From Marsupella aquatica (taxonomy: Eukaryota > Plantae > Marchantiophyta): a stretch of DNA of 64,000 nt. A program made the translations under genes and the position numbers. Shown one piece after another: positions 14,792 to 60,982 of the stretch. Positions within the stretch are counted from its first letter, which is position 1; every line of letters starts with the position of its first letter. Under the pieces are notes generated by a model, which saw nothing but the letters and a program-made list of their open reading frames with translations, made no database searches and was not told the origin of the DNA. The stretch is from the NCBI GenBank assembly GCA_973895155.1, contig OZ316893.1, positions 1 through 64,000 of the forward strand, read 5' to 3'.

Positions 14792-16433
14792 ATGACATTT
14801 CCACAACCCACTCAAGTAAGTAACATAATATCTATTTTTTTCAATCATTTTTAAAAAAATTATTAATATAATAGACATTATGGATTTAAGTAACTAAAAA
14901 ATATTATATTATTACAAGTTTATATTAATTTTTTAATCAAAATTCTGATTGGTAATAAATATTTACTATATTTAATAGTGTAACAGTTTTATTTAAAAAG
15001 TTTGGAAAACAATTTGATTAGTACTGACACAAAAATGCAATTTGACAATTTTGCAGATGCTCCATAAACGAAGGGAGAGGAGAAAAAATGAAAATAAATT
15101 TCATGAATATGGCGCCGAATTTTCTATCATAACATTTTGTTCAATATGGGATTATCTAAGCAAATTATGTGAATCTAAACAACAATTTATTTTATATTGG
15201 ATTTTAAAAAATGAAAATATTTTTGTATATTTTGTTACACACATTTTACAAATAAATGTGTCCAATTTTTCAAGAGCTAAATTTTTGAATGGGTATAACA
15301 ACTGCAGAAGTGCAATTTCACCAATTCTCCCTCTTCAAACACTTCAACAAACCGAGAAAATCTTTCATCATCATCAACAGAGACAAAAATTGCCTCCACT
15401 ATTGAAAAAATTCATGGGAAAATTTCACATCCTTAACCTATCCCAACTCCGTACCTTACAAGTAGAGAGGGTAGCTTCTTGTAAAGTTGACAATACATTC
15501 TCTTCAACACAAGTAGAAGTGCAACAAATATCAAAATCACAACTGAAAAAATTGACTGGAGTGATAATGGGAAATTGGAATGAAGACATGACTAAAACCA
15601 ATCATAGTAATCTTACATTCACATTTGAGCGTTATCCATCAAATTTTCTAGTGATAGAGAAATCTGAAAATATTGTTTACTTTTACGACAAGTCAGGGAA
15701 AAAGCCTTGGCTTGTAGCAATGCTTATGCACCAACAAATATTGGGAGTGACAACATTACAATTCATTCGAAAACTTTTGAGTGCATTGTTTGTTGCTCAT
15801 TCTCCATTTCAAAGAGGCGAGGGGAAAAAAGCTTTTGACAGCTTCATGACAGGATATGGTCCTTGGAATAGCAGTTACATGGGTGGCCGTTTGACTTATT
15901 ACACACACCAGAAGAAGATGAATACCATTTTCGATGATTGCCTTGATGTCAAAGATTTTGAGAAGTGGATCGATAAATATTCACATATTGAACTTATGGA
16001 TATTATATTGGGGCTTTATATGTGGTGGTGCCCAGAGATGATAGAGTGTTTTTTGGAATACTCTCATCCGTACTTACTATCATCTGATGGTGACAAATAT
16101 CATGGAAGTGAAGAGCAGATAGGGGAGAATGTTAGACCTAGTACTTACCAATTATATATAAGTGAGGATTATTGTGTGCAAACACATGCTGATGATGATG
16201 CAACTGACTTCACCTTAGCGTATGCTAGTCATCCTGACCATTTCCTTTCAGCAATCGATTTTGTAATTCCAGAGTATGGAATTCGATTGCCAATTAGAGA
16301 TGGAAATCTATTTGCATTTCGGAGCGATGTTGTTCATGGTACAGGCTTTAGAATGAAAACATCGAATCCTGCATATGTTGGAGCTATTACCGTGAATAAA
16401 AACCTCAGCAGACTGATGCAAAAATTACATTAA
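14792..16433 (+). CDS. TET/JBP-like 2OG-Fe(II) dioxygenase, copy 1 (probable 8-codon exon 14792-14815, intron 14816-15056, main exon 15057-16433)
   Basis: Intact ORF. THADDD (His at 16185)...FVIPEYGIRLPIRDGNLFAFRSDVVHGT (His at 16335) gives an HxD..H triad in a DSBH pattern. A GTAAGT...TTGCAG phase-0 intron joins in frame. Confidence 0.7.
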
Positions 16434-26169: not shown

Positions 26170-27401
26170 TTATAAATCAAATCTTCTCCCCACACTTCAG
26201 GGACTTTGCAATCTGTTCCAACGCAAAGGACCCTGGTGAGCTCAGCTCAACTCAGTGGGGCCGCAGCATAAGTAGAAGGTCCTTCATTGATCTTCTAGCT
26301 CCCAACACTTCAGGCACTTTGCATGAGTCTCGTCGTAGTAGTACGTACCCGTAAATTGTGGCGCTTGATTCAATTGTTGAGTTATATGGCATTCTGGAGC
26401 TTTACTTCTCCTTCTCAACAAGCGGGGTTGCACACCAACTTTGCCACAACACTTGCTACCACCCATCAACAAGCTAGTTGATTTTGAGCACAACCTTTAC
26501 ATGGTATGCTTCTTAGTTGGTATTTTTGAAATGTCTTTTAATTGGAAGTTCACACCCATTGATTCAGTCCTTAGATTGATTTTTGGTAGGGTGCAGCTCA
26601 TATAGAATTAGTGATACAATGATTGTTTCTTTCACGTTCCTAACCTCACAGAGTTTACTTTAGTCTCTTTTGGATACCCTGTTACAATCTACAAAGTAGT
26701 TATTTGCTTTTAGGTAAACATTTGTCTTGCATGTCATTTGTACTTTGCTAGGTTGGAAGTCTAAATGCTAACACTTTGGCAACAATAGGTTCCAGTTTCC
26801 TATGTTAAATGTGTACAGTCAGAAGGGAGCCAGAGTATATTCTTAAGGGCTTTTGTTCTTCAAGGACTTACTGCAAGCAAGTGAAACTTGTTAGTTAAGT
26901 ACAAGCTCATTTTGGCATTAATTTGATGTTTGTTTGCAATCAGCTCAAGTTGCTACGTGGAGCCCCAAATACTAACCTAGAAGTTGGGAAATCATACTTG
27001 AATTTCGTTTATTTTCTCTAAGGTGAGTTCCTACTATCATTTATTTGTTTTAAGTATAATTCATGAAGGACATGGAAAAATAAAATAAAGCAAAGAAAAT
27101 ATAAGTATTTTAAAACAAATATTGACTATATTTTTCTACTTATTATCTTATGAATTTGCCTAACATATGTATTATAAAACTAAACAATTGACTTTATTTT
27201 GAAATATATATCTGGCATGCTTTTCTGATTATTGTTATTTAATAGTTCCAGATAGTTTGGCCGGAGATATGTATTTTGAAATATGTATCTGGCATACTTT
27301 TCTGGTTATTGTTATTTAATAGTTCCAGATAGTTTGACTGGAGATATGTATTTTGAAATAAATATCTGTATAAATTAAAGTATGTTTTTGGAATTTTTCA
27401 G

Positions 27402-28844
27402 ATGGCAAAACGAAAGTTTTGGAAAGTGAACAAACAAATGAAGGAAGATGGCAAATATGAGTATGAGAAAATGAAATTTGCAATGGACGTTTTCATTCAA
27501 ATTTTTTCAGCGATCATGATATTGCATCCACGTTCACAAAAGTTTGCCATGTTATTTCTTCTTCAAGAAGATAATATTTTTCAAGCATTTGTACAAAATG
27601 TATTGAATATTAAACATACTGTATCGAAAGCAATGATATATAATGCTTACTATAGATTTAAAGAAATTGGACCACCAAAAACCTTTACTTCTTGCGCATG
27701 GGAGAATATCTGTGATATTCTCGATCATCATTATTCTTTAGATTCAGTACCCTATAGTATAAGAAAATACATCCATTTTCTTAGGTCATCTACCTATATT
27801 GAAGAGTGTGTAAAAAGAGAAAAAAATATGCTAGAGAAAAAAGAAATGGTGTTTGAAAAAATTATTTCCCAATTTTGGTGGGGAAATGTGAATCCAATGG
27901 AATTAGTGCAAGGATTTTGGGGAAGAGTTGATGATGAAGGTGAATGTTTTTATCGCTTAGAATTAGAAAAAACATTACAAATACTTTCTAGAAGAAAAAA
28001 CAAAGGGAAAGAAATTGAAATTGAAGAGGCACCTATATATAGGGAGCTTCCAATTTCTTACGTTGAAATCCAAAAAACAAAACAGGTTACGGAGATCTAT
28101 GATAAAATCTCAAGTGAGCTAGTGGGTATCCATATTCGCCCTAAAGATGTTCATAAATCTTTTACTATATTGATACGAACTTATCTTAAAGATCTTTTTT
28201 GTGCTCATCCAAGTTCAAAAAGATCTAAAACTAGAGCATCCTATATGAGTGAAATGGTGGGGTTCGGTCCATTTCACCATACATGGACACCTGGAAAAAA
28301 TGTTACATCTTTCTACACTCATAGTAATAAGTTAGTAAAAGCTTCAAAACCTTTAAAAGATTTTGGTAGATTTATTGATCGATTTGCACATGGGGCTGTG
28401 GTAGAAATTTTAATGTCTATGTGGTTTAGATATTATCCTACGTTATTACATACTTTTCTTAGATGTTGTAACCCTTACTTAGAAACTTCCCAATATATTA
28501 AGGAAGGTGTTGAGATACCATTTTTTGATAAGCACATGAAGAAGGGACCTCCTGCTTATCAACTATTCATTACTAGAGATTATTGTTCACGTTTTCATGT
28601 GGACAATGATAGGACAGAGTGGACACTAGCATATACTAGTCACCCTGATGAACATATTTCACCAGTTGATTTTGTATTTGCCAAACATGGATTTATATTA
28701 CCTTTGCATAATGGTGATTTATTTGCATTCAAAGGCAAACATCTCCATGGTATGGCTTTTAGAAAACCAACAGAAAATCCTGCATATATTGCAGCTTTAG
28801 TTATGAATAGTGGCTTAGGACAATTATTAAATAGAATAGAGTAA
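27402..28844 (+). CDS. TET/JBP-like 2OG-Fe(II) dioxygenase, copy 2 (480 aa), preceded by a probable 5'UTR intron 27023-27401
   Basis: FHVDND (His at 28596)...FVFAKHGFILPLHNGDLFAFKGKHLHGM (His at 28746). Same 50-aa His spacing as copy 1 and alignable to it at both ends. TTTCAG|ATG acceptor. Confidence 0.72.
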   Translation: MAKRKFWKVNKQMKEDGKYEYEKMKFAMDVFIQIFSAIMILHPRSQKFAMLFLLQEDNIFQAFVQNVLNIKHTVSKAMIYNAYYRFKEIGPPKTFTSCAWENICDILDHHYSLDSVPYSIRKYIHFLRSSTYIEECVKREKNMLEKKEMVFEKIISQFWWGNVNPMELVQGFWGRVDDEGECFYRLELEKTLQILSRRKNKGKEIEIEEAPIYRELPISYVEIQKTKQVTEIYDKISSELVGIHIRPKDVHKSFTILIRTYLKDLFCAHPSSKRSKTRASYMSEMVGFGPFHHTWTPGKNVTSFYTHSNKLVKASKPLKDFGRFIDRFAHGAVVEILMSMWFRYYPTLLHTFLRCCNPYLETSQYIKEGVEIPFFDKHMKKGPPAYQLFITRDYCSRFHVDNDRTEWTLAYTSHPDEHISPVDFVFAKHGFILPLHNGDLFAFKGKHLHGMAFRKPTENPAYIAALVMNSGLGQLLNRIE

Positions 28845-32452: not shown

Positions 32453-33643
32453 TTTTCTGGCTGCAAACAGATTGTCGTCTGCTTACAAGTAGTTCTGGCA
32501 CCTGCAGCACGTACGTACCGGCACCTAACGATGATCCTCTACCGTTACATACATTGACATCCTTAATTGGAAGGAGCCAGACAGTGCAGCAACCCCACTA
32601 CTGTGAACTTGTTAACCCGTGAAGAAGTAATTCTGGCTCGTTCAACTTGGGATGTCAGAACAGGACTGCAATATAGGTCATGCACATGCGTGCACAATTG
32701 TAAGAGAGCAACGATGAAGAAAGCTGAAGCTTCATTGATTGCGGAATCCCACAAATCGATCACCACACAAACCTATTCTCTAATGAGACAACCAGTCATT
32801 CTCAATCCTGATATCTCTCACACTAGCACACTTCGCCCCTTGTAACATTCGATTGTGCTGACAGGTCTAGCTAGGCAGCAAGTATCACAATCACCACTTC
32901 CACATTTGTGACTTCTAGTCGGTCCCTCCCTCTGTCTGAGACCATAAAACTTAGCATGTAGACCCCAGTTGCCACCATGATTTCACAACCCTTCTATATT
33001 CCCAACCTCTGTCAGCCCTTGCACTCTCTAGCTCCATTTGGGACCCTTTTTGAAAAGTGGGAACAAAGATTGAAGACTACTTCTGCCCCCCTTGGGGCCT
33101 CTCTCCTCGACCAGTGAGAAGAAGGACAAGACAAAGTTTAGGGTGGAGAATGAATACTGCACATCAAAGCACCGAGAGGGGGGGGGGGGGAACGGAGCAG
33201 AGAAATAAACTCAGTGATTTAGTTTTCACAGGCCTGCCAAGGCAAGATGCATGAAACAAGCTCTCTAATACCATGATGAATTTTGAATACTTTACTCAAC
33301 TTGATCATCCCACGTAAAGTTAACAAGAAATAGCTTTGCCCCAAACTGACTCCTAAGTCACAAAATAGGAGTAGGAAATAATCTGGGTCTAACAAAGCAT
33401 ATCCTATTTAAACTTCAAACAGCTAGAGAGAGCTGACCTGCATGCCAATGTGATCTACATTAAGAAACCGAAGCTAAAGTATGGATCTCTCCCCTGAAAC
33501 TTTCCCACCGAACACCATACTTCCATCTAAGTAGTCTGATATTCATTTCACCCTTCATCTCCTGAACTTCACTTTTGAAATCTTCCAAGTAATTTACCAC
33601 ACTGTCCGGCCTCTATAAGAATTCTTCTCAATTCTCTGATTGA

Positions 33644-36600
33644 TCACCGAAATTCAGGATACTTGATCCTCACAATGGTTGCTACAAGACGCATAAAATT
33701 GTTGCCCAGAGCCTCAGGACTTGTAGACACAACCCATTCACACAGCTCCTGGTCACTTTTCCCTTTGATTTCAGGAATTGCTCGGAATAAATCGCTCTGT
33801 ATGTTATCAAATCGCCATGCCTTCCACACAAAAAGCCGCAATCTCTCTCCTGATTCATCTTCACACTGATCTCCATACAGCCCTTCATGAAATCTCATCC
33901 CACTAGGCTGGTGTGGGAAGTGACACTTGAAACAAGTGTCTGGTCGAGAAGGAAACTTGTTATCGCAATTTGCACGGTTGTGTGTTCCTAGACACTTCAC
34001 ACATCGTCCCCGTACATAAGGACATTGCAAAATACCATGAGGAACACTCTTTGAGAGGGGACTCCAACACATCAAGCACTTTTTCCTATCCCCAGCAAAT
34101 TTACGGATGATACAAATCTTATTCATGGCTTCGTCAATTCTTTGTTTGATGAGTGTTGGTCGAGCTCTTGCCACAACCGTGGTTGTGGTTCCTTTGCCTT
34201 GGGATGATCCGAGTGATGATGCTGGTGTTGTTCTTTCACCTGGTGCTGTAACCCTAACACTCTGTCCTCCTTGTATGTTTTGGGAGATGCTCCCCTGAGA
34301 TACAATTTCAACCACTTCTGACCTAGCTTGTGATAATTCTTCGGCCTCATATTCCATTGGTAGTTCCTGATTGTCTGCTGCTTGGGAGCATATGTCACAA
34401 GGAATTGCATCCGGGATGAGGTAACACATCTGTGGCTTACCATCAACGCTAGCATGTAGTGCAAAGCGACGACACATTTTTGTCTCCTCAATCCATTTGT
34501 TTGGAATCTTGAAGTTGGAGTCCATCCTCAAGGCCTCATTGCGGTAGCTGGAGTTAGAAACAACAGTGCTTATTGCTAATAAACCATCACGCCCAGCTCG
34601 GCCAGATTCCTGATGAAATTGCTCAAAGGACCTGAAATTACCTCTGTGAATTACAAGTCTGATTGACTTGTAATTATAGCCAGAACCAATGACCCCAGTT
34701 GCCACCATGATTTCACAACCCTTCGACTCCCACTTCTTCAAGGTTTTCACGGTGTCTGCTGTGCTACATCCTGCATGCAAAAATGTACAGCACAAGTTCC
34801 TGGCTTCGAGTAGCTTTGCCATCTCTTGGACTTCATCTCTTGTTAGGCAATAGACAATGGCCCGGTCATGAACCAGGCTAGATCTCTTCCAATCTTGAAG
34901 CTGTCTAACTATTTCTCCATCCATGTCAGGCACTTCCACAACCATGTATCGGATGTTTGGCCTAACAGTAGAAGAACGAACCCAATGTAATCTTGAACCC
35001 AAAGTCAGTTCGATATCAGATTGTTGTGTGGGTGGTAATGTCGCTGTTAATCCTATAATTTGACAGGGAACTTTCATTAGAGAAATCAGATTTCTCATTT
35101 TTGGACGGAAATGACACTGTAGTGTATGAATCTCATCAAAAACAATCGAATGCAATCTTTGTGTAGCTTGCAAGTGGTTTGCAAAGACACCAAATGTATC
35201 TGAATCAGCTGCAGTCACGATAGATACAAAAACAATTGCAGGTGTTACTCCTATCCCGAGTGCAAATCCACTTGTAAACACAGTGTGACCAATTCCTGCT
35301 TTTCTGCATTCAGATAAGTGACCCGATATGAGAGATTTGAATGGGACTACCACAATCACTGTTTTGTCCATCAATGTGGAAGGGGCCATGAAAATCAATG
35401 ACTTTCCTGTTCCAGTGGGAAGTACAGTTACAAAATCCACAGTGTTTTCAATAGCCAAAGCAACAGAGATTGCTTGTTCAGTTGACCTCCACCTTTTGTG
35501 ACCCAACTTGTGTAGAGCTATGGAAGCTCTTATACTTGTGTCGTGACAGATGTGCAGTGCCGAATCAACATCTCCCACAACTGATGTTGATGGTTCTCCA
35601 TAGGCAGGGCAATAAACAACCCTTGTCTTGCTTGGAACATGATCAATTTCAAGCTCAATGTCATGACGTGGACGTAGAACAGTAGTGGTTCTTGGAAAAG
35701 GATCTAGTGTGACTTCCCTGCAACCTGTTGTTGAGCTATCCAGATGAATCAATCTTGGGGACTTATCCGAAAGATTAAGCAATGCATGCCACTTATCTGT
35801 AAATATTCGGAATGCTCTCAAGAGATGTCCATCAATAGCTCTTAAATCTTTTACACTTTGAGCATAATGATGTCCCATTGTAGCTGTTGTATGTCCACCT
35901 GCCACATCTACAATATCATCAAGATCTTGAGTGCGTTGGTCTCGAATCTTTTCTGAAAAAAATGCTGCTAGGTGTCGGTATTCTGAAAGCCCGAATGTGA
36001 CTCCACAACGCTTAAAGAAATTGTTGTGTATGCTCTTGGAAAGATCATGTGCATCTTGCTTTTTATCCATATCAACGAACCAACAATCATCATAATTACG
36101 GGCAACCTCCTTTCCCCATATTTTCTGTGCAACATAAGATTGTGTAGGCCTCACCAAACAAAAGTATACCAGAAACAGAGTTCTTAAAGAACTTGGAAGA
36201 AACCGTATAAGTGGTTTCATTGGAGCACCTGTATTTGCACCTTTATGATAGGTTTGAAAGAGCGCTATTGTATGATGCTCTAACAATTTTGTTGTTGGAT
36301 CATCATCTGGGCCTGCTGTTGCCCAATAAAATGACCTCTCGCTTGTGGCTGTGTTGCGAATCAAGAAACTGTTGTACTCTTCGCCCCTTGCTGGTAGACC
36401 GGCAGTGAAATGTATAAGCAGATTCAATTTTTCTTGTAAATCAGAGCAAGCAGTCATCCACTTATAAAGTGTGATATCATTCCAAATGACATCATTTCGA
36501 TCTGTCCGCCCGAGAATAAAGTGTCCTCTAATCTTAGGATCAACAAACAAGTGTGTTAGTAGATCGAGGCCATGTTGCTGAAGAATCCGGTTGCGAGGAT

Positions 36601-38605
36601 CTATGACAAAGTTGTACCCAACTTCTGTGTTGTTGACATCGTCGTAAATAGCACGACTCTCCTTAAGTAATTTGTCAACCCAATCTGTTCGGAGACCAAG
36701 AAGCACATCACAATTTAAAATTGAGTGGGCTTCTTGAATAATAGCATGCACCATATCTCGAAAATTGTCGATTGTAATAGATTCACCATCAACTAGACAT
36801 GCTGTATTATTGGCATTCAATGGTACTAGTCTTGGCCATACTGGAGTCCCTGCAGTAATCCTATTTGCCAAGCGCAGAGATTGCGATACAATAGTAAATG
36901 GAGTAGGTAGTGCTATGTCACTTAAATATTGAAGAAGTCGATCAGCTTCTTCATTAAGAATGGTGCTTGGGTTTTTATGCCAAAAACATTGTGCAAGGTG
37001 CATCAAAATGGTCACCCTAGCCCAATATTTGAGTATCGCCATTGGTTGTGTAAGATGACGAACATGCCAAAATGAATACTCTTCTGCTTCTGGACTGTGG
37101 CCAACTTTTATGAGTGAATGTAAAATAAGAAACCGAGTGAAAATACAGTTCGCTGCTCTTCCTGCTTCAAGTGTTGCAGGCATCTTTGGAGTCCAAAGAT
37201 GAATCAACACATTATGTAGAACAGCTAAATCAACATTGTCAATAGAATTGTCATCTAATTCATTGAGTTGACTCATGAATTTTTGAAGAGCAATTTCCAT
37301 TTCTTCTCTGTTTGTTTGAAAAACATGAATGTCCGAACTAAGCTCATTAGAAGATGATCGAAGCAAGCAGAGAATGAATTCTGTGATTATATCACAGTAC
37401 CTACTCCTTGATGATTTTGAGTTCAATTGATTGAATCCCACTGCAACATCATCATTGATATTTGTCTTCTCCACTAGTCTTCTCAATCTGTAATCCACCT
37501 CTTTAAGAACCAAATCTTGTACATTGTTCATGTAGATAGTCACCACTTGACTGACATATGAGAGTGGAGATTTGCCCTGCTTTGGTGGTGGGAGCATCTG
37601 TGCTTTCACCTGCAAAAATGGTACCCCTTTTGGCATGAATTGGGCCGCAAGCTCATGCCATTTAGACTGTGCTAGCCATGGAGTTAGCTCAGCAATTGGA
37701 GGTAGAAGTTCTAACCGCAAAGACTGAAAATGGTCATCAAACTCCTTTGTGATTATAGCCCTCAAACTTTTAGATTGCAAGTGACAGTCATCCCCATCGA
37801 GATTGAGATTGTGATGTTGAACACCAAAGTATTTGAGGCCTATAACACGATCTGAGAGGATTTGAACTTGGCATTCACTCTTCACATTGACATAGGACAA
37901 CTCAGGATGTTTTCTCAAACGATGATTGGACATTGACCTTTTCTCCCCACAATAGTAGATGCATTGTTTGCAAGAAAAGCCGTGTCGAATGACAACACCT
38001 GGTACTGGAGAAAGCAATGCAGCTGGTGGATCTCTTGTATATGGTAATATGGATGTATCATCCATGCTTGTAAAAGAGAACTGTTGTAAGCTCCTCAATA
38101 GTTGATGACTGTCGTAGTCTGATGCTATTCGATGACACCTTGATTTCTCCCGTTGATGCTTTTGAACATGATGAATGATATTGATATTTTCATTGTATAT
38201 GAGTACCGAATGACACTCTATACATACAAGGAAAACCAATTCCTCATGACGAACAACGCAGAGATTAACACTTCTCAAGATCTCTGGTGTACCAGAATGA
38301 TCTGGTGTAATGCACAATCCTTCATTAACCGCCAAGTCGTGTGGATCAACAAATCTTTCGACTTGATTAACATGGATTGTGTCATAGTGTCGGCGAAGAC
38401 TATCGCCACGTGTGTAATACTGAGAACACATATTATCGGGGCATGCGAACATCCCATTTTCAGACTTGTGGAGGATCTCCACAGTGCCATCGCAATGCTT
38501 GAATTTGAACGTCATCCTGTGCTCAAAACGTTTGTGAGCATCTCTTGCTCTTGCTGATTGAAAAATCTGCTCACACGCACTACATGGAAAAATGGTTGTC
38601 TCCAT
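33644..38605 (-). CDS. 1653-aa Zn-finger/DUF3505-like + tyrosine-recombinase-like + RecQ helicase fusion (telomere-linked-helicase type)
   Basis: Two N-terminal C2H2 fingers, then CxxC..H..H blocks. Recombinase-like motifs GLPAR(740)GEE, YHK(788), YR(877)H, GGH(905)..Y(914). Helicase motifs PTGTGK(1068)S, DE(I)H at 1157, TATLPP, Q(1332)ESGRAGRDG. RQC CRR..C..CDIC and C-terminal Cys/His knuckles. Confidence 0.92.
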   Translation of the reverse strand: METTIFPCSACEQIFQSARARDAHKRFEHRMTFKFKHCDGTVEILHKSENGMFACPDNMCSQYYTRGDSLRRHYDTIHVNQVERFVDPHDLAVNEGLCITPDHSGTPEILRSVNLCVVRHEELVFLVCIECHSVLIYNENINIIHHVQKHQREKSRCHRIASDYDSHQLLRSLQQFSFTSMDDTSILPYTRDPPAALLSPVPGVVIRHGFSCKQCIYYCGEKRSMSNHRLRKHPELSYVNVKSECQVQILSDRVIGLKYFGVQHHNLNLDGDDCHLQSKSLRAIITKEFDDHFQSLRLELLPPIAELTPWLAQSKWHELAAQFMPKGVPFLQVKAQMLPPPKQGKSPLSYVSQVVTIYMNNVQDLVLKEVDYRLRRLVEKTNINDDVAVGFNQLNSKSSRSRYCDIITEFILCLLRSSSNELSSDIHVFQTNREEMEIALQKFMSQLNELDDNSIDNVDLAVLHNVLIHLWTPKMPATLEAGRAANCIFTRFLILHSLIKVGHSPEAEEYSFWHVRHLTQPMAILKYWARVTILMHLAQCFWHKNPSTILNEEADRLLQYLSDIALPTPFTIVSQSLRLANRITAGTPVWPRLVPLNANNTACLVDGESITIDNFRDMVHAIIQEAHSILNCDVLLGLRTDWVDKLLKESRAIYDDVNNTEVGYNFVIDPRNRILQQHGLDLLTHLFVDPKIRGHFILGRTDRNDVIWNDITLYKWMTACSDLQEKLNLLIHFTAGLPARGEEYNSFLIRNTATSERSFYWATAGPDDDPTTKLLEHHTIALFQTYHKGANTGAPMKPLIRFLPSSLRTLFLVYFCLVRPTQSYVAQKIWGKEVARNYDDCWFVDMDKKQDAHDLSKSIHNNFFKRCGVTFGLSEYRHLAAFFSEKIRDQRTQDLDDIVDVAGGHTTATMGHHYAQSVKDLRAIDGHLLRAFRIFTDKWHALLNLSDKSPRLIHLDSSTTGCREVTLDPFPRTTTVLRPRHDIELEIDHVPSKTRVVYCPAYGEPSTSVVGDVDSALHICHDTSIRASIALHKLGHKRWRSTEQAISVALAIENTVDFVTVLPTGTGKSLIFMAPSTLMDKTVIVVVPFKSLISGHLSECRKAGIGHTVFTSGFALGIGVTPAIVFVSIVTAADSDTFGVFANHLQATQRLHSIVFDEIHTLQCHFRPKMRNLISLMKVPCQIIGLTATLPPTQQSDIELTLGSRLHWVRSSTVRPNIRYMVVEVPDMDGEIVRQLQDWKRSSLVHDRAIVYCLTRDEVQEMAKLLEARNLCCTFLHAGCSTADTVKTLKKWESKGCEIMVATGVIGSGYNYKSIRLVIHRGNFRSFEQFHQESGRAGRDGLLAISTVVSNSSYRNEALRMDSNFKIPNKWIEETKMCRRFALHASVDGKPQMCYLIPDAIPCDICSQAADNQELPMEYEAEELSQARSEVVEIVSQGSISQNIQGGQSVRVTAPGERTTPASSLGSSQGKGTTTTVVARARPTLIKQRIDEAMNKICIIRKFAGDRKKCLMCWSPLSKSVPHGILQCPYVRGRCVKCLGTHNRANCDNKFPSRPDTCFKCHFPHQPSGMRFHEGLYGDQCEDESGERLRLFVWKAWRFDNIQSDLFRAIPEIKGKSDQELCEWVVSTSPEALGNNFMRLVATIVRIKYPEFR

Positions 38606-39328
38606 CGATCCTACACATCAATGTCACAAGCTCGTGCCATAAATCGCCATGTACTATCGGGAATAGATTACAAGAAGCGCAGGAATAGATTACAGGAAGC
38701 TCATGCAAGTGTTCTTTGTCTCTAGTATCTACCAAGCTACTGAACTCTCAAGCATAGTTATAATTGAGCTTGCGCTTGAGTTCTGATCATGATGTTACAA
38801 GGTAGTCTATTGGAGTTCAGTTCTCTGTAAAAAATTCAGAGCAATGTAATAAACTAAAACCGTAAAGATTTGGAGTCTGAAGACATCAATGTAAAGCTAA
38901 TAAATGTGTGCACAAAAATAGATAATCATTGCATGGCCAGCTATGCAGTCAACCCCCAGAGCACAACTGACAGCTACATGCCCAATGCATTTTGCATACA
39001 TATATAGATTCAAAATCATAATCCCATGCATATATTCGCATTTGTTAAGAGAATTTAAGGAATTATGTCCTTCATGAATTAAAGCTTGTCCCAATAGATT
39101 ACTTTTATTTAATTTACCTGACAAAATATTATGGGGCTTGGAAGCTTGTAGAATGATTCTGTTCAATTCCCAAAGGTAGATTATCGCAGTTCAACTTGCC
39201 GCCGACATTTGCAAAGTGACTAGCTGCAACCACTGTGTAATGCGATACATGTGGGCAACCACTGTATAATGTGATGTGGCAACTCTACCATCTAATGAAG
39301 ACAAAATGCTTGAACTAAGGACATCAAT

Positions 39329-40800
39329 GTTTGGTTGTAGATTGGGTTAGGAAATGTGGGTTGTGGCATGGGTTTAGGGTCTTATGTTGGGAGTTGAGAA
39401 AGACTGGAGTTACAAAATTTGGTGTGGTGTTGGGGCTGAGGGGGTTGGGAGTTGTGTGTTGGGGATTGAGGGGTTGTGGGTTCAAGGGGAAGTTGTGTCT
39501 TGGGTTGGGTAGGTTGAGAGTTGTATGTTGGGGAGCTTGGTTGCAGATTGGGTTAGGAAATTTGGGTTGTGGCATGGGTTGGGGGAGATGTGTTGGGGGT
39601 TGAGAAAGTCTGGAGTTAGGGAGTTAATTTGTTGTAGAGTTGGGTGTTGGGGGTTAAGGGATTCATTTGGGGAGTTGTGTCTTGGGTTGGGTAGGTTGAG
39701 AATTCTGTGTTGGGAGTTGAGTAAGTTGGGGAGTTTGGTTGTAGGTTAGGTTAGGAAATGTGGGTTGTGGCATGGGTTGGGGGAGATGTGTTGGGGGTTG
39801 AGAAAGTTTGGAGTTAGGGAGTTAATTTGTTGTAGAGTTGGGTGTTGGGGGTTGAGGGATTCATTTGGGGAGTTGTGTCTTGGGTTGGGTAGGTTGAGAG
39901 ATTTGTGTTGGGAGTTAACACAGTTTGGAGTTACAAAATTTGGTGTTGTGTTGGGGTGTGAGGGGGTTGGGAGTTGTGTGTTGGGGATTGAGGGGTGTTG
40001 GGGATTGTTGGGTGTTGGGGGTTGAGGGATTGGAAGTTGTGTCTTGGGTTGGGTAGATAGATAGTTGTATGTTGGGGGTTAAGGGAGTTGGGGAGTTATG
40101 TGTTTATCGGTTGAAGGAGTTTGGAGTTTGGTTGTGGGTGGGGGTTGACATTGTGGGTTGGGGGAGTCGTGGGTTGGGGATTGAGGGGTTGTGGGTTCAA
40201 GGGGAAGTTGTGTCTTGGGTTGGGTAGGTTGAGAGTTGTGTGTTGGGAGTTGAGTGAGTTGGGGAGTTTGGTTGTGGGTTGTGGCATGGGTTGGGGGAGA
40301 TGTGTTGGGGGTTGAGAAAGTCTGGAGTTAGGGATTTAATTTGTTGTAGAGTTGGGTGTTGGGGGTTGAGGGATTCATTTGGGGAGTTGTGTCTTGGGTT
40401 GGGTAGGTTGAGAGATTTATGTTGGGAGTTGAGAAAGTTTGGAGTTACAAAATTTGGTGTAGTGTTGGGGGGCTGAGGGGGTTGGGAGTTGTGTGTTGGG
40501 GATTAAGGGGTTGTGGGTTCAAGGGGAAGTTGTGTCTTGGGTTGGGTAGGTTGAGAGTTGTGTGTTGGGGGTTGAGTGAGTTGGGGATTTAATTTGTTGT
40601 AGAGTTGGGTGTTGGGGGTTCAGGGATTGGAAGTTGTGTCTTGGGTTGGGTAGGTAGACAGTTGTATGTTGGGGGTTGAGGGAGTTGGGGAGTTATGTGT
40701 TGGAGGTTGAAGGAGTTTGGAGTTTGGTTGTGGGTGGGGGTTGACATTGTGGGTTGGGGGAGTTGTGGGTTGGGAGTTGCCGGGGAAGTTGTTTGTTGGG
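39329..40800 (+). repeat. G/T-rich degenerate telomere-like block with ~130-200-bp higher-order repeats
   Basis: GGGTTG/GGGAGTTGTGTGTTGGGG motifs; the block tgtggcatgggttgggggagatgtg... recurs at ~39568, 39766 and 40280. Confidence 0.92.
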
Positions 40801-40814
40801 ATAGAGACAACCAT

Positions 40815-41390
40815 GTTGTAAAAGATGGACAAGAAAGATGATAAAGAAAATCCAACACAAAAGGGAAAATCAACACTAAACCTTTGAACCTTTGATCCCT
40901 GAGTATAGACAGCCACAACAAGGGCAGACTGACACATTGGGCAGTCAGTTGTAAAAGATGGACAAGGAAGATGATAAAGAAAAGCCAACACTTAGTCTAG
41001 AAAGAGGGGAAATTCAGAGAAAATCTGGACTGTCAATAAGAAGAGATAGATGGGCAAGATCATGTGCAAGGACTTCAATTCAATCCAATCTTCAATGGAA
41101 AATCCCAGTTCTTACAATATACGGTTAACATAATTATGTATACAAATCATCATTCCTGCTTATATGTCACAAGTATCTCCTCGACAAGACAAGTCAACAA
41201 TAAATATCAACCTGCTTATCCGCCACAAGTATCTCCTCGATAGGACAAGCCAACAATAAATATCAACCGTGAAAAGTCAAAAATAAATGTTAGCCGTGGA
41301 AAGTACCTCCTTGACACGACAAGTCAACAATAAATATCAGCCATCGAAACAATAAATATTAGCATGGAAAGTCAACAATGAATGTTGGCC
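40815..41390. repeat. Short subterminal repeats
   Basis: gttgtaaaagatggacaagRaagatgataaagaaaa occurs twice; gacaagYcaacaataaatatca occurs three times. Confidence 0.75.
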
Positions 41391-41533
41391 GTGGATTTTA
41401 AATGAACGGGCCAGATGCTTGTATACACACGACCACACCATCTTCTTCACGACCGCCACTACACTTGTTACAGGCCTCCAAAACAGCCACACAGCCGCTG
41501 CACTACGGCCGTAATGCGCCGATAATATATATA

Positions 41534-41781
41534 GGAACCCCTCCCCCACCCTCACCCCCAGCTCGTTACACCCCCAAAAGCTACAGTAGGGTGGCACTCG
41601 CCCCCTGGTACACGCACCCCGAAAATTGGGGGGTACCCCCACCCCTAGCCCATCCAAAATGCGCACACAACAAACTGGGGGTCAAACTCACCCCCAATAT
41701 TCGATAATCATACCAGTACTTAAAAAACTGGTATGCCACATGTGAAAACTGGGGATGACACTCTAAACCCTAAACCCTAAA
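41534..41781 (+). repeat. 248-bp direct repeat, right copy
   Basis: Near-identical to 991-1238, including the telomeric tail. Confidence 0.95.
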
Positions 41782-41837
41782 CTGATGGACCACTTCGAAA
41801 ACAAGGGGCGAGAACTCGGGGCCAAACTCGGGGCGAG

Positions 41838-41861
41838 AAACCCTAAACCCTAAACCCTAAA
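41838..41861 (+). repeat. Short (CCCTAAA)3 telomeric tract
   Basis: aaaccctaaaccctaaaccctaaa. Confidence 0.9.
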
Positions 41862-42005
41862 GATCCAAAATCCCACATTCCAAGTGTGAGGGCCGCCTCC
41901 TGGTCCTGATCCTAAGTCTAAACTTGGAGATCAGCGCCCCCCTGCCCACTCACGCCTCCTACCTCCACGTCCGCCCTTCCTAAAAGGAACGGCGCCCTTG
42001 CACCA

Positions 42006-43650
42006 TCACGACACCGGTGGTGGATCCTCAATGGACGCCCCCAACGCTCCCTCCGCAACCACTGCCGTTGGTCCGTCCTCTGACAGATTACCTGCCTCTG
42101 ACCGAGTCAACTTTTCATTGGCCTGACTGGGCCCACCCTCGGCTTCGGCTTCGGCTTCAGCTTCGGCCACGGCCTCCAACACGGCTACAGTCTCCCCGGC
42201 CTGCTCAAGAGGTGGATCTGGGATACCGGCCTCGTTATTGAGAAGTTCGGCTTGGGCCGCGCCATCCCCACCTTTGGTGATAGTGGGATCTACTACCGCA
42301 TTCATGCTGGAGGTTGGTACCGGTTTTACTACAGCTTGAGGGGTCGAATAACCTCCGGACCCCGAAGGTTTCCGCTTCTTCTTCTTCACTACCTCTATAG
42401 CCGGTTCCTTCCCCTTGCCGCCAACGTCCGGCACCGGGCCGTGTGTCATGGCTGGTCCTTCGGCAATTACCACCCCTAGTAACTGGTTTGCCCCAATGGG
42501 AGATGGACCTGATGCAGCTAAGCATTTAAATACTGCGGCTTGTTTCTTCAGCCGCTCTGTTTGGTTGTCGGCCCGCCGCTGTAGGTTCTCCATCTTCCTC
42601 GTGACTTCCTCCAACTCCTCCTGGGTCTCATCCAGGTCCTTACGTGCCTCCTCCAGCTTGTTCTTGGCTTCCTCCAATTCCCTGTGGGCTTCCTCCAATT
42701 CCTTCTTGGTGGTAGCCCTCTCCTCCTGGGTTGCTCTTAGCTCCTTGTCGAGCTCCGCTACGACCTCAGACTCCATGTTATTCATCTTGGCATAAGTCTG
42801 GTCGAGCTGGGCGTCCTTCTCCCGCAGGTTGGCCTTGAAGCTGGCCGTCAAGGACGCAAGCTCCTGCTGTAGCGCAATAATCCCTTGATAGGATTTCCCT
42901 AACTCAGCCTCCTTCTGCTCAAGGGCTCTGTGGATGACCTCGAGCTCCCCCTTCAACGCCCTCTCCCTTCTCTGAGTCTCCGCCGTGACCCGGTTATTGG
43001 CTGCTATATGGGCCTCCTCTGCGTCTCTCAGCTCCTTCTTCCACTTCTCCCTCTCCTTGATTGCGTCGGCCAATGCTCCCTGGGTCTAAGTCAGTTTATC
43101 CTTGATAATCTGATTATCAGCCTGCGCGGTATCCAACTGCCCCTGCATGATGTTCAGCTCATGCCGCTTAATCCGCAGTTCATCTTGGGCTTTCTTGGCC
43201 ACCCTTAGATCTTCAATCTCGGCTTCCATCCTCCTAAGCCGCCGGATGACCTCGTCCTTCTTGCTTCTCTCTAAAGCCACCGCTTCTTCTAATTGGTGCT
43301 TCTCTAACTGCTCCCTCTGGAAAAAGGGTCCTACCTCCAACTCCTCCCCAAAGATGCTGAGCGCAAGTTCCCCACACATCTCACCATAATCCATGGCTCT
43401 ATTTTTAGCGTAGGTGGAGTAATTAGAAGTGATCGGCATTGCCCATCGCGGCCTCTGCTCCCAAGCCATCTTGCGGATCTCTTCAATCGTGGCTAGAGGT
43501 TTGCTTCCTTTTTTGGCTAGCCGCCTGATGTCCTCCGGCCAATCTCCTCCTGGCAAATCCTTTTCCCTAGCCAGGGCTGCCTTTTCTGCTTCCCTAAGTC
43601 GCTCCTGAAATTTCTATGCCGTCTGCTTTATGCCGTCAAATCTCGGGGGA
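42006..43650 (-). pseudogene. Coiled-coil, TE-associated-type ORF broken by two TAG stops
   Basis: ORFs 43614-, 43086-43556 and 42006-43073 share one frame separated by single TAG codons. Long heptad-rich E/K segment and a GKGKEP motif. Confidence 0.55.
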
Positions 43651-46600
43651 GCAACATTTGGTGGGGGAGACTTGGGAGGGTGTGGACGAGGTATATTTGA
43701 AGTTGGCAGAACTAGGAGACCATTTGTACTGTTGCTATATGGCTTAGTTGTATATTTTGGAGTGCACTGCTTGTATGGATCTCTAATTTTAATGGAGACA
43801 CGAGCAGCGCTGATTTGTCTCAACTTTGTTTTGTACCATCCACACTAGTGGGAAATCTGAACGTTTCTTTCAAATTGGGACCGACGAGGAACTTACGAAG
43901 TTTTTCAATCGACATGCAATTCTCATATTTTTCATAGTCTCTAGCTTTACAAATGTAGCAACGCCTTAATCGAGTTGGGCACACTGACTGTGTATGTGTT
44001 TGTGTTCAGCTAATTCGAAGAGTACATGCACTTCTGGTGAACGCTCATCCGGATGAAAGTAAAGATGAAGAAAGCACCTGGGATAAAGATCAACATCGTG
44101 ATGCTGATGCTAAAGCTGTTCCGGACTTTTATTACCCTACTTGGCCAACAAAGCAAGAGAACTGAAGTGATGACTAAATCCCTTGGAGGCCGACCAGGAG
44201 TTGCAACGTAAAGGTAGTGCGCCAGGTGAAGGAAGTAGGGTCACGAAAGGCAAATATCGATGATGTATCTCAATTCTGCGGGAATTGCATCCAAACGTGA
44301 TTATAGTTTATCTGGAACAGTTGGAAGTTTTTGAGTTCTGATTCATACCAAAGTCGTGAGATCTTTTGAATGACAGAAAATGTAGTTTTTCTATCAGGTG
44401 CTCTGTCCCAAATGTGCAAGTTACTCCAAGCTTTTAAGGAGTACTTAGTGCCTACACCGGGATTTTTGGTGTTTAGTGTACCAGAGTACTATAGGATGCT
44501 TCGTTTTCTCAAAATCTTGGGGGAAGGGCAATTCAAGTGGATAATTGTCCCACATATTTTTTATGCAGAAGAATTGGCATCGAGGCAGGACCGCTTCATA
44601 CAACTTTAATGAAGCCAATTTCGTCAGTCTGGCATATTCAGGTTTCTGCCCTGAAATGTGTACTTAGTGTTGACATAGAGTCAGAGAAGGCCCTACATAC
44701 ATACAGAGAAGGCCACTTTGTTGTTAAACCAGAAATGCCTTCTTCGTTGTCTAAACGTCTTGTTGGTACCTTTTTAACTCTTTAATATGCTAGGTGACTC
44801 ACTAATGGGGTACGAGAAATTCATTTTTTAATGTCCTCGGCTGGATGCGATGACAATTTAGCGGGCTGAATGAAGTTGATCAAACTGAGGGCATTGCTCG
44901 TACAGAGATGCAAGGTCAACATTTTGTTGTAAGGCAACAACGTATGGTAGAATTTCGACAATCTTTTTCAGGAACAAGAACAAATTTAGGGGACTGAGAA
45001 ACGTAAAATACATCCCTCCATTTTATATGTGTATCTCCCTCCCCAGATTGTGACATGTGACTCCTATTCATGACCACGGCAAAGGAATATGCTGACTTGA
45101 AGGAAATTATTCAGAGGCACAAGGTTCAGAGGGAGGGGAAGGAGGAGGAGGAGGAGGAGAAGAGGAAGAAGAGGAAGAAGAAGTGGAGAAGGGAGAGGAG
45201 GCTGCAAGTCCTATGCAACCTGAGCCTAAGAAAATGAAGAAGCTAAGAGTCCTAACCCCAGGAATTTACATTCCTAAGGGGACAAAGAGGAAGAAGAAGA
45301 GTCCTTTTTGGAAAAAGGACTATTATGTGGAGAAAAGATATGAATCCTAAATGTTGAAATTCTTTTACGCTTGTTGACGATTAGGTCTTTTGTAAACTCT
45401 CTGTGGCTGAGCTTTGTATATTAACCTTGTTGAGGCACTCACTAAGTTGTTTGAAAGCACATAAGACCCTGAAAATGAGCCATGGTGTTGAGAGAGCTGT
45501 GAATACGCGAATAGCTGGCCTCGGGGTCAGCCTCGACCCTACTATCACGAGATCAGTCCCTATTGCAGGGCCACTACGGAACTATTTCTACTTTGTTTGA
45601 GCTCAAATTTAGTGCGGTTGAGGGGAAGAACCTGGGTGTTTGACAAAGTGTCGGCAAACGAGAAGGAGGCAAAAGGGGTGGGGACTAACGGAGCAGGCCG
45701 TTTGGTGCAAAATTGACTAAGAAGCGCGATGGGCGACGATCTGTTGAACGAGATGGGGGTGATGGGTCGGGAGGTAGAGTAGGGGTTGCAACAGCGGGAG
45801 GAAGTGAGCAGCTGCATGGCTACGACGATGAAGTTTGCCTTTAGGGCGTCAAAGCTGAAGTTTTTTGCTTCTGGACCGCCTCAATTTTCAAGAGGTGACC
45901 ATGGCAAGCGGCGGAGCGAGGAAGGAAGAGGGTGGGCAGGTGAGGACAATAATGTGGTGTTTGTGACGGGGTTCGATGAGTAGGGTCTCATGGGAAAGGA
46001 TTCCTAAATAGGGTTAGGAGGAGCGAGAGTGATTCCCATTGTTGCTGACATTGTACTACGCAGTGTGACCGATTTCTCTCTCACAATTCTGACTTTAATG
46101 GCTTAGGATTCCAACCTAAATCCCTCGTGAGCCTCATGCAAACCCCTCCCCTCACAGGCCTGATGTTACTATTTTTGTAGTCTGCAAGATGTCCGGAGCG
46201 TTTCTTCCTCTTCTGCCGACCTTCATACAAACATAAACAAGAGGACTCAAACTTTTTCTTGGAACTGACCTTCTGGAATCGTGAAGAGAAAACAATTTTG
46301 TCTTGTTGTTTGGATGCGAGCCTTCCCAAGCCTATCGCAAAGTCCTTCCCTCCCAGGTCCGATGATGCGAGTGTTATTTGTTCATAAACGTGTTTGTGCC
46401 CCCTCTTCTTAACTCAAAGCTTTGTCTCTTCTAGAGCTGTCAAGTTGTAAGTTAGCATAAAATCGATTACGAGTTGATTGGCAAAATATTTCTTGTATGA
46501 CACCTGGCATATACTTGTCAGCAATCATTCAGAGCTTGTCATCATTTGCTATTGGAGTTTTCTTCGAGCGACTTCTTAATTGTAGTGGTCGTAAGTTACA

Positions 46601-58821: not shown

Positions 58822-59272
58822 TTCTCCTTGGAGTCAGCGATGCTGGAGCTAAGTGTTGAGGTAGTCGAGTTCCGCGACTTGCTCCCCCCCTTTAAAAATG
58901 GTCACGTCCGCGTGACCTAAGTAAACGTTCGAGCACGCCTAGACCAACTTAGGTCTAGAATTTTTTTTATAAGATAACCATTGGTTTGCCCATTAGGCTG
59001 ATGCAAACCAGGTTGGTGTGCGCATTCCAAACTTAGGAAATTCCAAACCTATCCCACTTATCCAAGTAGGATGCCAGTCCAATCGGGTAAGCTAACTCCA
59101 AACTCATTGGACCCCATGTTCTCCCCTTAGGGTACTCCCCTTTAGTTCAAACTAGCCCGCCCACAGATGTAAGGCGGGCACCATCAACTTCCACTCGCAA
59201 AAAGCAAATCGGCCGCCCAACAACCTCTAGCTCCAACGCAATCCAACTTTACTCTCAAGAGGCCGAGAGGAG

Positions 59273-59299
59273 TTTAGGGTTTAGGGTTTAGGGTTTAGG
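59273..59299 (+). repeat. (TTTAGGG)~4 tract in the chromovirus 3' region
   Basis: tttagggtttagggtttagggtttagg. Confidence 0.9.
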
Positions 59300-60982
59300 A
59301 TACAACTCACAAAGGTAGCTACAGCTGCCTGTACCAGTTCACAATGGCGGTAAACCGCTTCGCTTACGATAGCTTCCAAGGATCTCAGAGGCATTACTCA
59401 AATTTTCCTCCGGTTCCCAAGTACTCTCGGCTTGATCATAGCCAGCCCACTTAACCAAATACTCTAAGATTTGCCTTCCCAACTTGCGTTTGTAACGGTG
59501 GTCCAGAATTGCCTCCACCTCAAACTCCTCCGCGTCCTCCACCAGCATGGCGTACGGACGCAAGACTTGATCCCGGTTGGGATCATCGTCTTTGACAAAC
59601 TTCTTGAGTCGGCTAACATGGTAGCTCTTGCCCACGCCCATTTCTTTGGGTGTCTCCAACACCACCGAAACCGGATTATCCTTGTGGGCCCATCGTATGA
59701 TACGATAGGGCCCCGCATATCTGGGAGCCAGCTTCCTACTTATGTTCCCGTGGTATTGCTCAGGTCTCAACTGTAACCAGACGCTCTCCCCAATTTCAAA
59801 GCTTACCTGGCGTCGATGTTTATCCCCTTGTTCCTTGTACCGACTTTGGGCAAGGGTCATCCCCTTGGTAGCCGCTTCCACAACTAGGCGCCGTTCTCGA
59901 ATAAAATTGTCCGCAGAAGGAACCAAGCCAAGCTTCCGGATTTATGAACCAGGAGGGCGCCCTCGGCATCCTCCCGGTGGCCAATACAAACGGCGCAAAC
60001 CCCTTCGCCGAATGCTTGGTCGAGTTATACCTGAACTCGGCCATTGTTAAGTGTTTTGCCCAATCCTTTTGATTGGCCATCACAAAGTGACGCAAGTAGT
60101 CCTCCAAGATACCATTAACCCGTTCCGTTTGGCCATCTGTTTCATGATGATACGCTGATCCCCTTGTCAGGTTTGTTCCGGATAACCGGAACAACGCCTT
60201 CCAGAAATGACCTGTGAACTTGGTATCACGGTCGGACAGGATATGCAACGGCAATCCCCATAGTCGGAAGACATTGTCAAATACTAGACAGACAACTTCC
60301 TTGGCTGACACCATTTTCGTAGTCGACAAGAAATACGCCATCTTGGAAAAACAATCCACAATTGTTAAGATGGAGTTACTGCCGTGGGACTCAGGTAACC
60401 CAACAATGAAGTCCATGGAGATTGACTCCCATGGAGCCGCAGCGACTGGTAAGGGTTGTAGAAGTCCTCCTTTTGCCCTATAAACCGTTCGGTTTTTTGG
60501 CATGAGTAACAACTTTGCACGTGGTGAAGAACCGATTGCTTTATGTCCGGCCAATACACATCTCTAGACATGCTGTGATACGTAGCAGTTTGTGCGCCAT
60601 GCCCTCCCCAGGGCGAGTCGTGGTACTTTTGCAGAACCTCTAACCTTAGAGACTCTGGGATGTACACACGCCTTTGTTTGTACCGCCATAACTGGACATT
60701 ATGTGTATCCAACCCCAAAGATACGTGCCTCACCCTGCCTTGGCTACCCCCATTGCTTTGCCATTCCTTGGCTAACCTGTCATCCTCATACGCTTGGGCC
60801 AAAACCTTAGGCCACTCGGATTCAATCATTATGATCCCATTGACCCGATGATGGTCCTTACGTGATAACGCGTCAGCTGCCGTATTTGTCTTCCCTTGAA
60901 CGTGGCGGACTTCAAAGTCAAAATCCGCCAAGAACATCTGCCAGCGCATTTCCTTGGGGTTCAGTCTTGGCTTAGAACTGAA

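Follow-up and report, generated by a model that had tools for sequence, protein, structure and literature searches.

We analyzed a 64,000-nucleotide stretch of DNA from the liverwort Marsupella aquatica (GenBank assembly GCA_973895155.1, contig OZ316893.1, positions 1 to 64,000 of the forward strand), hereafter the window, in which a single intronless open reading frame (ORF) at 33644-38605 on the reverse strand encodes a protein of 1653 amino acids without internal stops. The content of the window is that of a land plant, with an ORF for a leucine-rich repeat (LRR) receptor kinase, fragments of pentatricopeptide repeat (PPR), PP2A-B56, PI-PLC and aquaporin genes, a Ty3 chromovirus-type element and TTTAGGG motifs, and the ORF is found toward the right-hand edge of an approximately 40-kb mosaic made up of host gene fragments. 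The original prediction, made from the sequence alone, was that the protein contains a hidden tyrosine recombinase (YR) domain fused to a RecQ helicase; it missed the membership of the protein in the known telomere-linked helicase (TLH) family. Our computational analysis supports a single polypeptide that combines a predicted YR-fold catalytic domain, bearing a conserved R-K-xxxR-H-Y set, with an intact superfamily 2 (SF2) RecQ-like helicase. The features of the ORF, with residues numbered along the 1653-amino-acid protein, are as follows.

33644..38605, reverse strand: full ORF, with zinc fingers, OrsD/DUF3505, YR core-binding-like and predicted catalytic domains, RecQ-like helicase, Zn-binding motif and C-terminal Cys/His region
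38372..38584, reverse strand: two N-terminal C2H2-type zinc fingers, residues 8-29 and 55-78 (pattern match)
37907..38248, reverse strand: OrsD/DUF3505 region, residues 120-233 (Pfam PF12013, E 3e-07, above the cut-off)
Residues 128-150 and 212-233, reverse strand: further C2H2-like motifs inside the OrsD region (pattern match)
36857..37570, reverse strand: helical domain, residues about 346-583, likely a YR core-binding (CB) domain (model pLDDT 89)
35771..36835, reverse strand: predicted tyrosine recombinase catalytic domain, residues about 591-945, likely the 'TLH domain' (VIA-align and hhalign)
36386..36388, reverse strand: R740, paired with XerD R148 (kept in 144/146; hhalign)
36242..36244, reverse strand: K788, in a turn between two beta-strands, likely the equivalent of XerD K172 (unpaired by hhalign)
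35975..35986, reverse strand: S874-x-x-R877, the HxxR position, with S874 opposite XerD H244 and R877 opposite R247 (hhalign)
35891..35893, reverse strand: H905, paired with XerD H270 (kept in 115/123; hhalign)
35864..35866, reverse strand: Y914, predicted nucleophile, paired with XerD Y279 (kept in 115/123; hhalign)
34583..35476, reverse strand: SF2 RecQ-like helicase core, residues 1044-1341 (Pfam DEAD 7e-17, Helicase_C 2e-15)
34388..34474, reverse strand: RecQ-type Zn-binding motif CRR...C...CDIC, residues 1378-1406 (sequence pattern)
33863..34078, reverse strand: C-terminal Cys/His cluster with three CxxC, residues 1510-1581 (sequence)

The middle region, residues 560-960, was modeled by AlphaFold2 from 93 sequences with a predicted local distance difference test (pLDDT) score of 87.8 and a predicted template modeling (pTM) score of 0.88. 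When the model was compared with 48,161 chains by VIA-align, the top eight matches were all tyrosine recombinases. The best match was XerA (4a8e), with a Z score of 11.8, a root mean square deviation (rmsd) of 3.1 and 163 aligned residues between model positions 32-386 and chain positions 99-279, and the next scores belonged to XerH (10.5), XerD (10.3), XerA (10.2), XerD (10.0) and Cre (9.2). All 28 rows with a Z score of at least 5 were tyrosine recombinases, topoisomerases IB or YR-derived proteins, where the structure labels of 9rd5 and 9hjt_H are ones that we presume to be correct, and the first unrelated row had a Z score of 4.7. Further down the list than the top eight were bacterial topoisomerase IB (Z 8.3), Ndc10 and a Zincore chain (Z 6.0-6.6) and TelK (Z 4.0). 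Ndc10 and QRICH1 are Crypton-derived (PMC3212892; papers are cited here and below for passages of their text). In a library of viral structures, the best match was the Feldmannia virus protein B5LWN9 (E 1.1e-3), and FirrV-1-B4, a putative phaeovirus integrase (PMC2373305), ranked 20th with an E value of 0.34.

A profile comparison by hhalign agreed with the structural search. The family aligned with 151 Xer and phage integrases over 140 columns with a probability of 89.2 and an E value of 2.2e-6 (a reversed-alignment control gave 0.25), and the alignment paired R740 with R148, S874 with H244, R877 with R247, H905 with H270 and Y914 with Y279 of XerD. In the model, beta-strands at model positions 220-227 and 238-243 flank K788. 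Upstream of this region, a model of residues 280-600 (pLDDT 89) had N-terminal domains of YR-fold proteins as its top six structural rows, including Brujita Int 15-116 (Z 5.5, rmsd 3.2, 101 aligned), XerA 9-98 (Z 4.7) and XerD 3-100 (Z 4.3), which is suggestive of a YR core-binding domain at residues about 346-583. The viral structure library gave no match for this helical domain.

The residues that the original prediction had picked out, R740 (in GLPARGEE at 736), K788, S874, R877-H878, H905 and Y914, are at those positions in the protein, and the ORF is indeed open over all 1653 codons. To evaluate their conservation, we used residues 360-1000 as a phmmer query, which matched 1140 cluster representatives (50% identity) at E≤0.001. 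Family counts were taken from the best 150, of which 148 passed a domain filter and were aligned, and conservation was counted only in the sequences spanning each site. R740 and E743 were each retained in 144/146 homologues, R757 in 141/146, K788 in 143/146, R877 in 120/125, and H905 and Y914 each in 115/123. All five of R740, K788, R877, H905 and Y914 were present together in 111 of the 122 homologues spanning 740-914, and all five rank within the eight best-conserved of 399 columns, which is more than chance would give. Because the homologues were chosen by their likeness to the query, the overall conservation is partly circular; the circularity does not explain the top rank of the five columns. 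This catalytic conservation at about 25% overall identity supports selection on the family, as judged from the alignment. The serine placed by the original prediction at the usual HxxR histidine position was likewise found where expected, since S874 pairs with XerD H244. Of the proposed R877-H878 pair, H878 was not borne out as an active-site residue: it pairs with the non-catalytic H248 of XerD and is Gln in 20/125 homologues. We regard the middle region as a predicted YR-fold enzyme of a non-canonical kind, without the textbook R-H-R-Y tetrad.

The helicase part of the protein is intact. Motifs I, II, III and VI are intact (PTGTGKS at 1063, DEIH at 1157, LTAT at 1186 and QESGRAGRD at 1332), Pfam places DEAD at residues 1044-1194 and Helicase_C at 1246-1341, and the best PDB matches of the family profile were RECQL5, BLM, RECQ1 and RecQ. 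The Pfam families above the cut-off on the 1653-amino-acid protein were DEAD, Helicase_C, ResIII and OrsD. The same scan returned no integrase family above the cut-off, no GCR1_C, no DUF3435 at E≤0.5 and, unlike canonical RecQ proteins (Sgs1/BLM/WRN), no RQC or HRDC. The RecQ-type Zn pattern is also present in 23 of 37 long relatives, and the C-terminal CxxC cluster probably forms zinc knuckles. Among homologues with at least 350 residues past the Tyr, 56 of 57 have the helicase. When 35 long relatives chosen from the 150 were scanned with Pfam (E≤0.01), DEAD and/or Helicase_C were found in 32 and OrsD in 20, and an integrase or DUF3435 in 0/35. Databases label the relatives only as helicase or hypothetical. 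The original prediction had anticipated that an automated annotation would probably report only RecQ.

Among the matches listed, the closest relative is a protein of the liverwort Calypogeia fissa, 62% identical over the YR region. Six of the 30 proteins looked up had names, from Calypogeia (two), Ceratobasidium, Marasmiellus, Leucocoprinus and Neolecta, and so cover one liverwort, three basidiomycetes and Neolecta; the one liverwort, Calypogeia, carries two divergent family members. A large family with a wide host spread and two divergent members in one liverwort fits what is expected of a mobile element. The Neolecta member, annotated 'ATP-dependent DNA helicase tlh1', is colinear with the 1653-amino-acid protein, with 24% identity over 1258 columns (E 1e-62 for the pair). 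In a quick, unrooted helicase tree, one branch separated 38 family members from 11 RecQ controls with a Shimodaira-Hasegawa-like approximate likelihood ratio test (SH-aLRT) support of 100. In a quick tree of the YR domain, built from the 122 of 149 rows with at least 300 amino acids, the 1653-amino-acid protein and a liverwort protein paired with support 100 within a 15-row group of support 98. That group includes the second liverwort protein and no named fungal protein, and because 12 of its 15 rows are unnamed, a direction of transfer cannot be claimed. In the ESM Atlas the matching clusters at 0.97 were unnamed and for the most part fungal; a further one at 0.86 was bacterial, with Phage_integrase on 17% of its members, which we take as a lead only. 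A search confined to 1921-5000 amino acids returned no relative longer than the ORF, a weak negative, and no genomic loci of relatives were recovered from metagenome contigs and viral contigs.

By protein homology, although not by location, the 1653-amino-acid protein is a member of the TLH family. TLH proteins have C2H2 motifs, a 'TLH domain' of about 250 residues without assigned function, and RecQ motifs (bioRxiv 10.1101/2024.02.27.582403). The protein described here has the same layout, with C2H2 fingers first, then a conserved domain immediately before the helicase, and a RecQ-like core, at a similar length (about 1550-1650 amino acids). It has four C2H2-like motifs and OrsD/DUF3505 as in fungal subtelomeric helicases, its helicase groups with its relatives apart from the canonical RecQ controls, and its 'TLH domain' region is colinear with the Neolecta 'tlh1', a link that rests on that annotation. 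TLH genes have been reported from fungi and one choanoflagellate (Monosiga), for example TLH1 of M. oryzae, tlh1/2 of S. pombe and TLH of F. oxysporum (PMC1635262; bioRxiv 10.1101/2024.02.27.582403), and in 2006 TLH was not found outside fungi (PMC1635262). The protein of M. aquatica differs in that it is found in a land plant, is apparently single- or low-copy and has no telomere array in its window, and in that the domain published without an assigned function is here identified, on the predicted fold, as a YR. DUF3505-helicase genes have also been described at fungal subtelomeres, and the word 'recombinase' is absent from the passages on them (10.1101/2023.02.05.527183; PMC5576322). In a literature search limited to papers open without subscription and to the main texts of preprints, we found no paper assigning a YR to TLH proteins or describing a YR-RecQ fusion, and passages of PMC11296320, PMC11890097, PMC9940879 and 10.1101/2025.11.13.688278 do not describe a YR-helicase fusion.

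Compared with the Xer/Cre/lambda-Int enzymes (XerA 4a8e, XerH 5jjv, XerD 1a0p and Cre), the middle region shares the predicted catalytic fold (Z 9-12), pairs residue for residue with XerD at R, xxxR, H and Y, and likely has a CB domain upstream. It differs in the replaced HxxR histidine, large insertions, the fusion to zinc fingers and an SF2 helicase, and its eukaryotic origin. The captain of a Starship, a DUF3435 YR gene, sits close to one edge of a long cargo-like region and points into it, and the ORF here is placed alike; it differs in having no DUF3435 Pfam match, a fused helicase, a plant host and no shown link to a border of the gene mosaic. Like the ORF, Cryptons are eukaryotic DNA elements that encode a YR without long terminal repeats, with a circle route proposed for them; they keep R-H-R-Y, CryptonF has the GCR1_C that is missing here, and the helicase fusion distinguishes our protein (PMC3212892). 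In the main text of that paper the word 'helicase' has 0 occurrences, and Cryptons are described as having terminal direct repeats of 4-6 bp. AcademH and KolobokH are transposons with a RecQ-type helicase, which in KolobokH is downstream of the transposase domain (PMC9587614, PMC10799480, PMC3627910); their catalytic domain is a DDE transposase with terminal inverted repeats (TIRs) and not a YR (PMC9587614, PMC10799480). ResT of Borrelia joins phosphotyrosine-type chemistry and 3'-5' unwinding in one protein, and differs in being a bacterial hairpin-telomere enzyme for which the passages describe no separate SF2 domain (PMC5388405); its relative TelK scored only Z 4.0 against the model.

Taken together, we consider it reasonably probable that the ORF is an unbroken land-plant TLH member that acts as the recombinase of a self-mobilizing, Crypton-like element with a built-in helicase, and is not an ordinary repair helicase. 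Short sites at the ends of the element would be recognized by the zinc fingers together with the core-binding domain. Y914, activated by R740, K788, R877 and H905, would cut one strand and hold a 3'-phosphotyrosine, as suggested by the fold, the conservation and established YR chemistry, and the fused 3'-to-5' RecQ-type motor would unwind DNA from, or branch-migrate, the phosphotyrosine intermediate. Strand exchange would then free a circle, to be integrated into a short target at another place, by the route proposed for Cryptons (PMC3212892). Telomeric repeats would serve as that target in fungi. In Fusarium, TLH units, either alone or arrayed, are flanked by telomere repeats at each side (bioRxiv 10.1101/2024.02.27.582403), the arrangement that a circle integrated into telomere repeats would leave. 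The complete catalytic set in 111/122 homologues, unlike domesticated Crypton derivatives, which lose theirs (PMC3212892), favors this reading, as does the linkage of YR and helicase in 56/57, for which KolobokH offers a precedent of RecQ in DDE transposons (PMC9587614). The ranking of the fold matches and the Feldmannia virus proteins among the closest viral structures count for it as well.

Several results weigh against it. A YR fold, whose absence would have refuted the original prediction, was recovered by VIA-align (XerA, Z 11.8), and hhalign agreed (89.2); Foldseek against the PDB gave no match at E≤0.001, its two highest-ranked rows being XerA (0.27) and Cre (0.29). No YR came out of PDB searches by sequence either (phmmer 0 hits; family profile 4 hits, none a YR). 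hhalign leaves K788 unpaired with XerD K172, although K788 is kept in 143/146 and lies between two strands. The HxxR histidine is missing family-wide, position 874 being Ser here, His in 2/122 and otherwise mostly Ala, Ser, Asn, Arg or Gln. R-K-R-H-Y is also the residue set of topoisomerase IB, and the Z scores of 4.3-5.5 for the CB domain are within the noise range for helical bundles. The flanks did not reveal element ends: the longest flank-to-flank matches, 10 nt direct and 11 nt inverted, equal shuffled values (median 11), and YR-type core sites numbered 3 on the left (4.6 expected) and 0 on the right (0.6 expected).

Read depth also counts on this side. The stretch is present in four public runs from two studies, and one of the runs may be the source of the window; contig depth in them is a rough proxy that gives no copy number; a fifth run, with a word share of only 0.15, was set aside. 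Contigs of one run (X1) cover 34695-39301 and 33882-34720 without gaps and link the ORF with both flanks. In that run the depth was 182-210 over the ORF, 200-322 over the left flank and 18,000-61,000 over the repeat at 41272-43927. The ORF has the depth of its flank in all four runs, and the depth gives no sign of amplification at the ORF; no second copy of it was found within the 64-kb window. Hence, where the original prediction had inferred selection or recent activity, selection on the family is supported and recent activity is not, given flank-like depth, no second copy and repeats at chance level. The ratio of observed to expected CpG was 0.48 for the ORF, 0.49 for the flank and 0.66-0.70 for neighboring repeats, and the depletion is in keeping with a long stay in a methylated plant lineage, as opposed to a recent import. 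Fungal contamination is unlikely: plant gene fragments are present in the window, and run contigs, none of which spans the whole stretch, connect the ORF with its left and right flanks at like depth. The ORF seems to be a single- or low-copy gene left stranded among the fragments of host genes in the mosaic.

Three alternative explanations were considered. It is possible, albeit unlikely, that the YR-fold domain, active in the manner of topoisomerase IB, provides its own helicase with a nicking-closing swivel or a junction resolver, working in host recombination or telomere rescue, with passive subtelomeric spread and a plant copy that may be domesticated. Five invariant residues without the YR HxxR histidine and the bacterial topoisomerase IB score of Z 8.3 are consistent with a swivel; a protein named 'DNA topoisomerase III' among the controls, in which Pfam finds DEAD, Helicase_C and topoisomerase families, shows that RecQ-topoisomerase fusions exist, and the plant copy has an unbroken frame, a depth like that of its flanks and host-like CpG depletion (0.48 vs flank 0.49). 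In S. pombe cells lacking telomerase, the tlh genes are induced and help the cells to recover (cited in bioRxiv 10.1101/2024.02.27.582403). However, the Z scores of Xer-type recombinases exceed that of topoisomerase IB by over 3 units, N-terminal domains of YR-fold proteins head the ranking for the upstream domain, and the surroundings of the plant gene are fragment mosaics and repeats and not a usual gene neighborhood. TLH regions are, moreover, dispensable at Magnaporthe ends, where most copies are broken (PMC1635262).

We judge it improbable that the enzyme resembles a telomere resolvase (protelomerase), forming or opening hairpin ends in concert with unwinding and thereby generating linear mini-elements or healing the ends of chromosomes. 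Resolvases also deviate at the HxxR histidine, and the fungal relatives of the ORF are located at telomeres, both of which speak for such an enzyme. So does ResT of Borrelia, which joins YR/topoisomerase-IB-like phosphoryl transfer with a 3'-5' ATP-dependent unwinding likened to RecQ (PMC5388405). Against it stand the TelK score (Z 4.0 vs 11.8 for XerA), the lack of any excess of palindromic core sites in the flanks beside the ORF, and the terminal telomere array sought and not found in the 64-kb window, which differs from the telomere-adjacent, multi-copy placement of TLH. It is about as improbable that the domain, although derived from a YR, only clamps DNA and does not recombine it, as with Ndc10 or QRICH1, and that the plant copy is cargo of a larger fragment-collecting element. 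Ndc10 and the Zincore chain are indeed among the structural matches (Z 6.0-6.6), the gene is within the host-fragment mosaic of about 40 kb, and a 34-nt piece of the ORF has itself been copied 1.7 kb downstream. Yet retention of the nucleophile Tyr and of the two Arg is 93-99% among the spanning homologues, and the known domesticated derivatives lost them (PMC3212892); capture of the plant copy as cargo is possible, but would not explain the family-wide conservation.

Beyond the preferred reading of a Crypton-like recombinase, we raise a bolder and tentative one, in which TLH genes might be the engines of an unrecognized, cross-kingdom group of eukaryotic DNA transposons that is the mirror image of Helitrons. 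The YR would make the 3'-phosphotyrosine, the fused 3'-to-5' RecQ motor would peel off the strand, and a second cut would close a single-stranded circle, to be pasted into telomere repeats in fungi and into internal sites in plants. On this view, the intact plant gene would be a source copy that is still live and might act as the 'captain' of the adjacent gene-fragment mosaic of about 40 kb.

Other sequences in the window were also inspected for element ends and telomere repeats. A perfect 17-nt inverted pair at 27057-27073 and 39065-39081, 12 kb apart, was rejected as a TIR, since no target duplication was seen by eye and 7/100 shuffles matched it. A 249-bp direct repeat at 991-1239 and 41534-41782 (99.6%) was rejected as the boundary of a giant element, as it lies in a very-high-depth repeat; at such depth, a pair of copies separated by 40 kb is to be expected whether or not they have a connection with the YR gene. 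Positions 1-1239 hold a 121-bp tandem array of nine copies followed by CCCTAAA motifs, and their last 249 bp are those that recur at 41534-41782, at the start of the very-high-depth repeat 41272-43927, which bears two coiled-coil ORFs. C-rich/G-rich degenerate telomere-like tracts at 1220-1690 and 39330-40790, inverted to each other, 65-71% alike and of low complexity, bracket the mosaic and are possible subterminal repeats of a large element. Pairs of TTTAGGG at 1218-1674 and 41761-41861 are in or beside the high-depth repeat, and those at 59273-59300 are at the edge of the Ty3 ORFs.

Within the mosaic, from about 7000 to 33600, short host gene fragments lie in mixed orientation and include an LRR receptor kinase, a PPR E motif, gyrase B/topoisomerase II, a PI-PLC EF-hand, PP2A B56, a CCHC knuckle and aquaporin; the region resembles the cargo of a fragment-capturing element. 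The original prediction described the neighboring host fragments as decayed; not all neighbors are, since two nearby ORFs remain open. These two, at 15042-16433 (463 amino acids) and 27402-28844 (480 amino acids), both on the forward strand, are AT-rich and paralogous (26% identical, E 1e-55), and neither has a meaningful Pfam match or a PDB sequence match. Their conserved C-terminal part contains HxD...H, and in each an in-frame ATG is preceded by CAG, a possible splice acceptor. The HxD...H pattern resembles that of 2-oxoglutarate/Fe(II) dioxygenases of the TET/JBP type.

Within the helicase coding sequence, 34 nt (residues 1294-1305; 34691-34724) recur without mismatch at 32961-32994, 1.7 kb downstream of the original, and are a real duplicate because the run contigs break at both copies. 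Just past the stop codon, at 33534-33603, two runs (X2 and X3) each have a low-depth contig with about 10 differences, possibly from a diverged related sequence elsewhere in the genome. At least four base differences fall in the ORF, two silent and two changing the protein. At residue 1130, where the window has Val, Glu is found in all four runs, and Glu or Asp in 16 of 17 aligned relatives, so the Val may be an error of the window or a rare allele. No RNA run is listed among the public runs holding the stretch. Further to the right, at 56033-62387 on the reverse strand, is a fragmented Ty3/chromovirus-type retrotransposon (gag, reverse transcriptase, RNase H, integrase and chromodomain) with a 109-bp perfect inverted duplication at 61231-61339 and 62275-62383.

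TLH genes at fungal chromosome ends have been known for more than 20 years, with their function stated as unknown and their signature domain unassigned (PMC1635262; bioRxiv 10.1101/2024.02.27.582403). If the TLH domain is a YR-fold catalytic domain with a conserved nucleophile, as predicted here, the question of TLH function becomes a single-mutation test, and the complete reading frame, with recombinase and helicase motifs intact, is a direct substrate for biochemistry. The land-plant copy falls outside the published TLH range of fungi and one choanoflagellate, and because an intact copy persists in a land plant, away from any visible telomere, the element would not be tied to telomeres. If the assignment is right, the 'telomere maintenance helicases' would be recast as possible telomere-targeting mobile elements.

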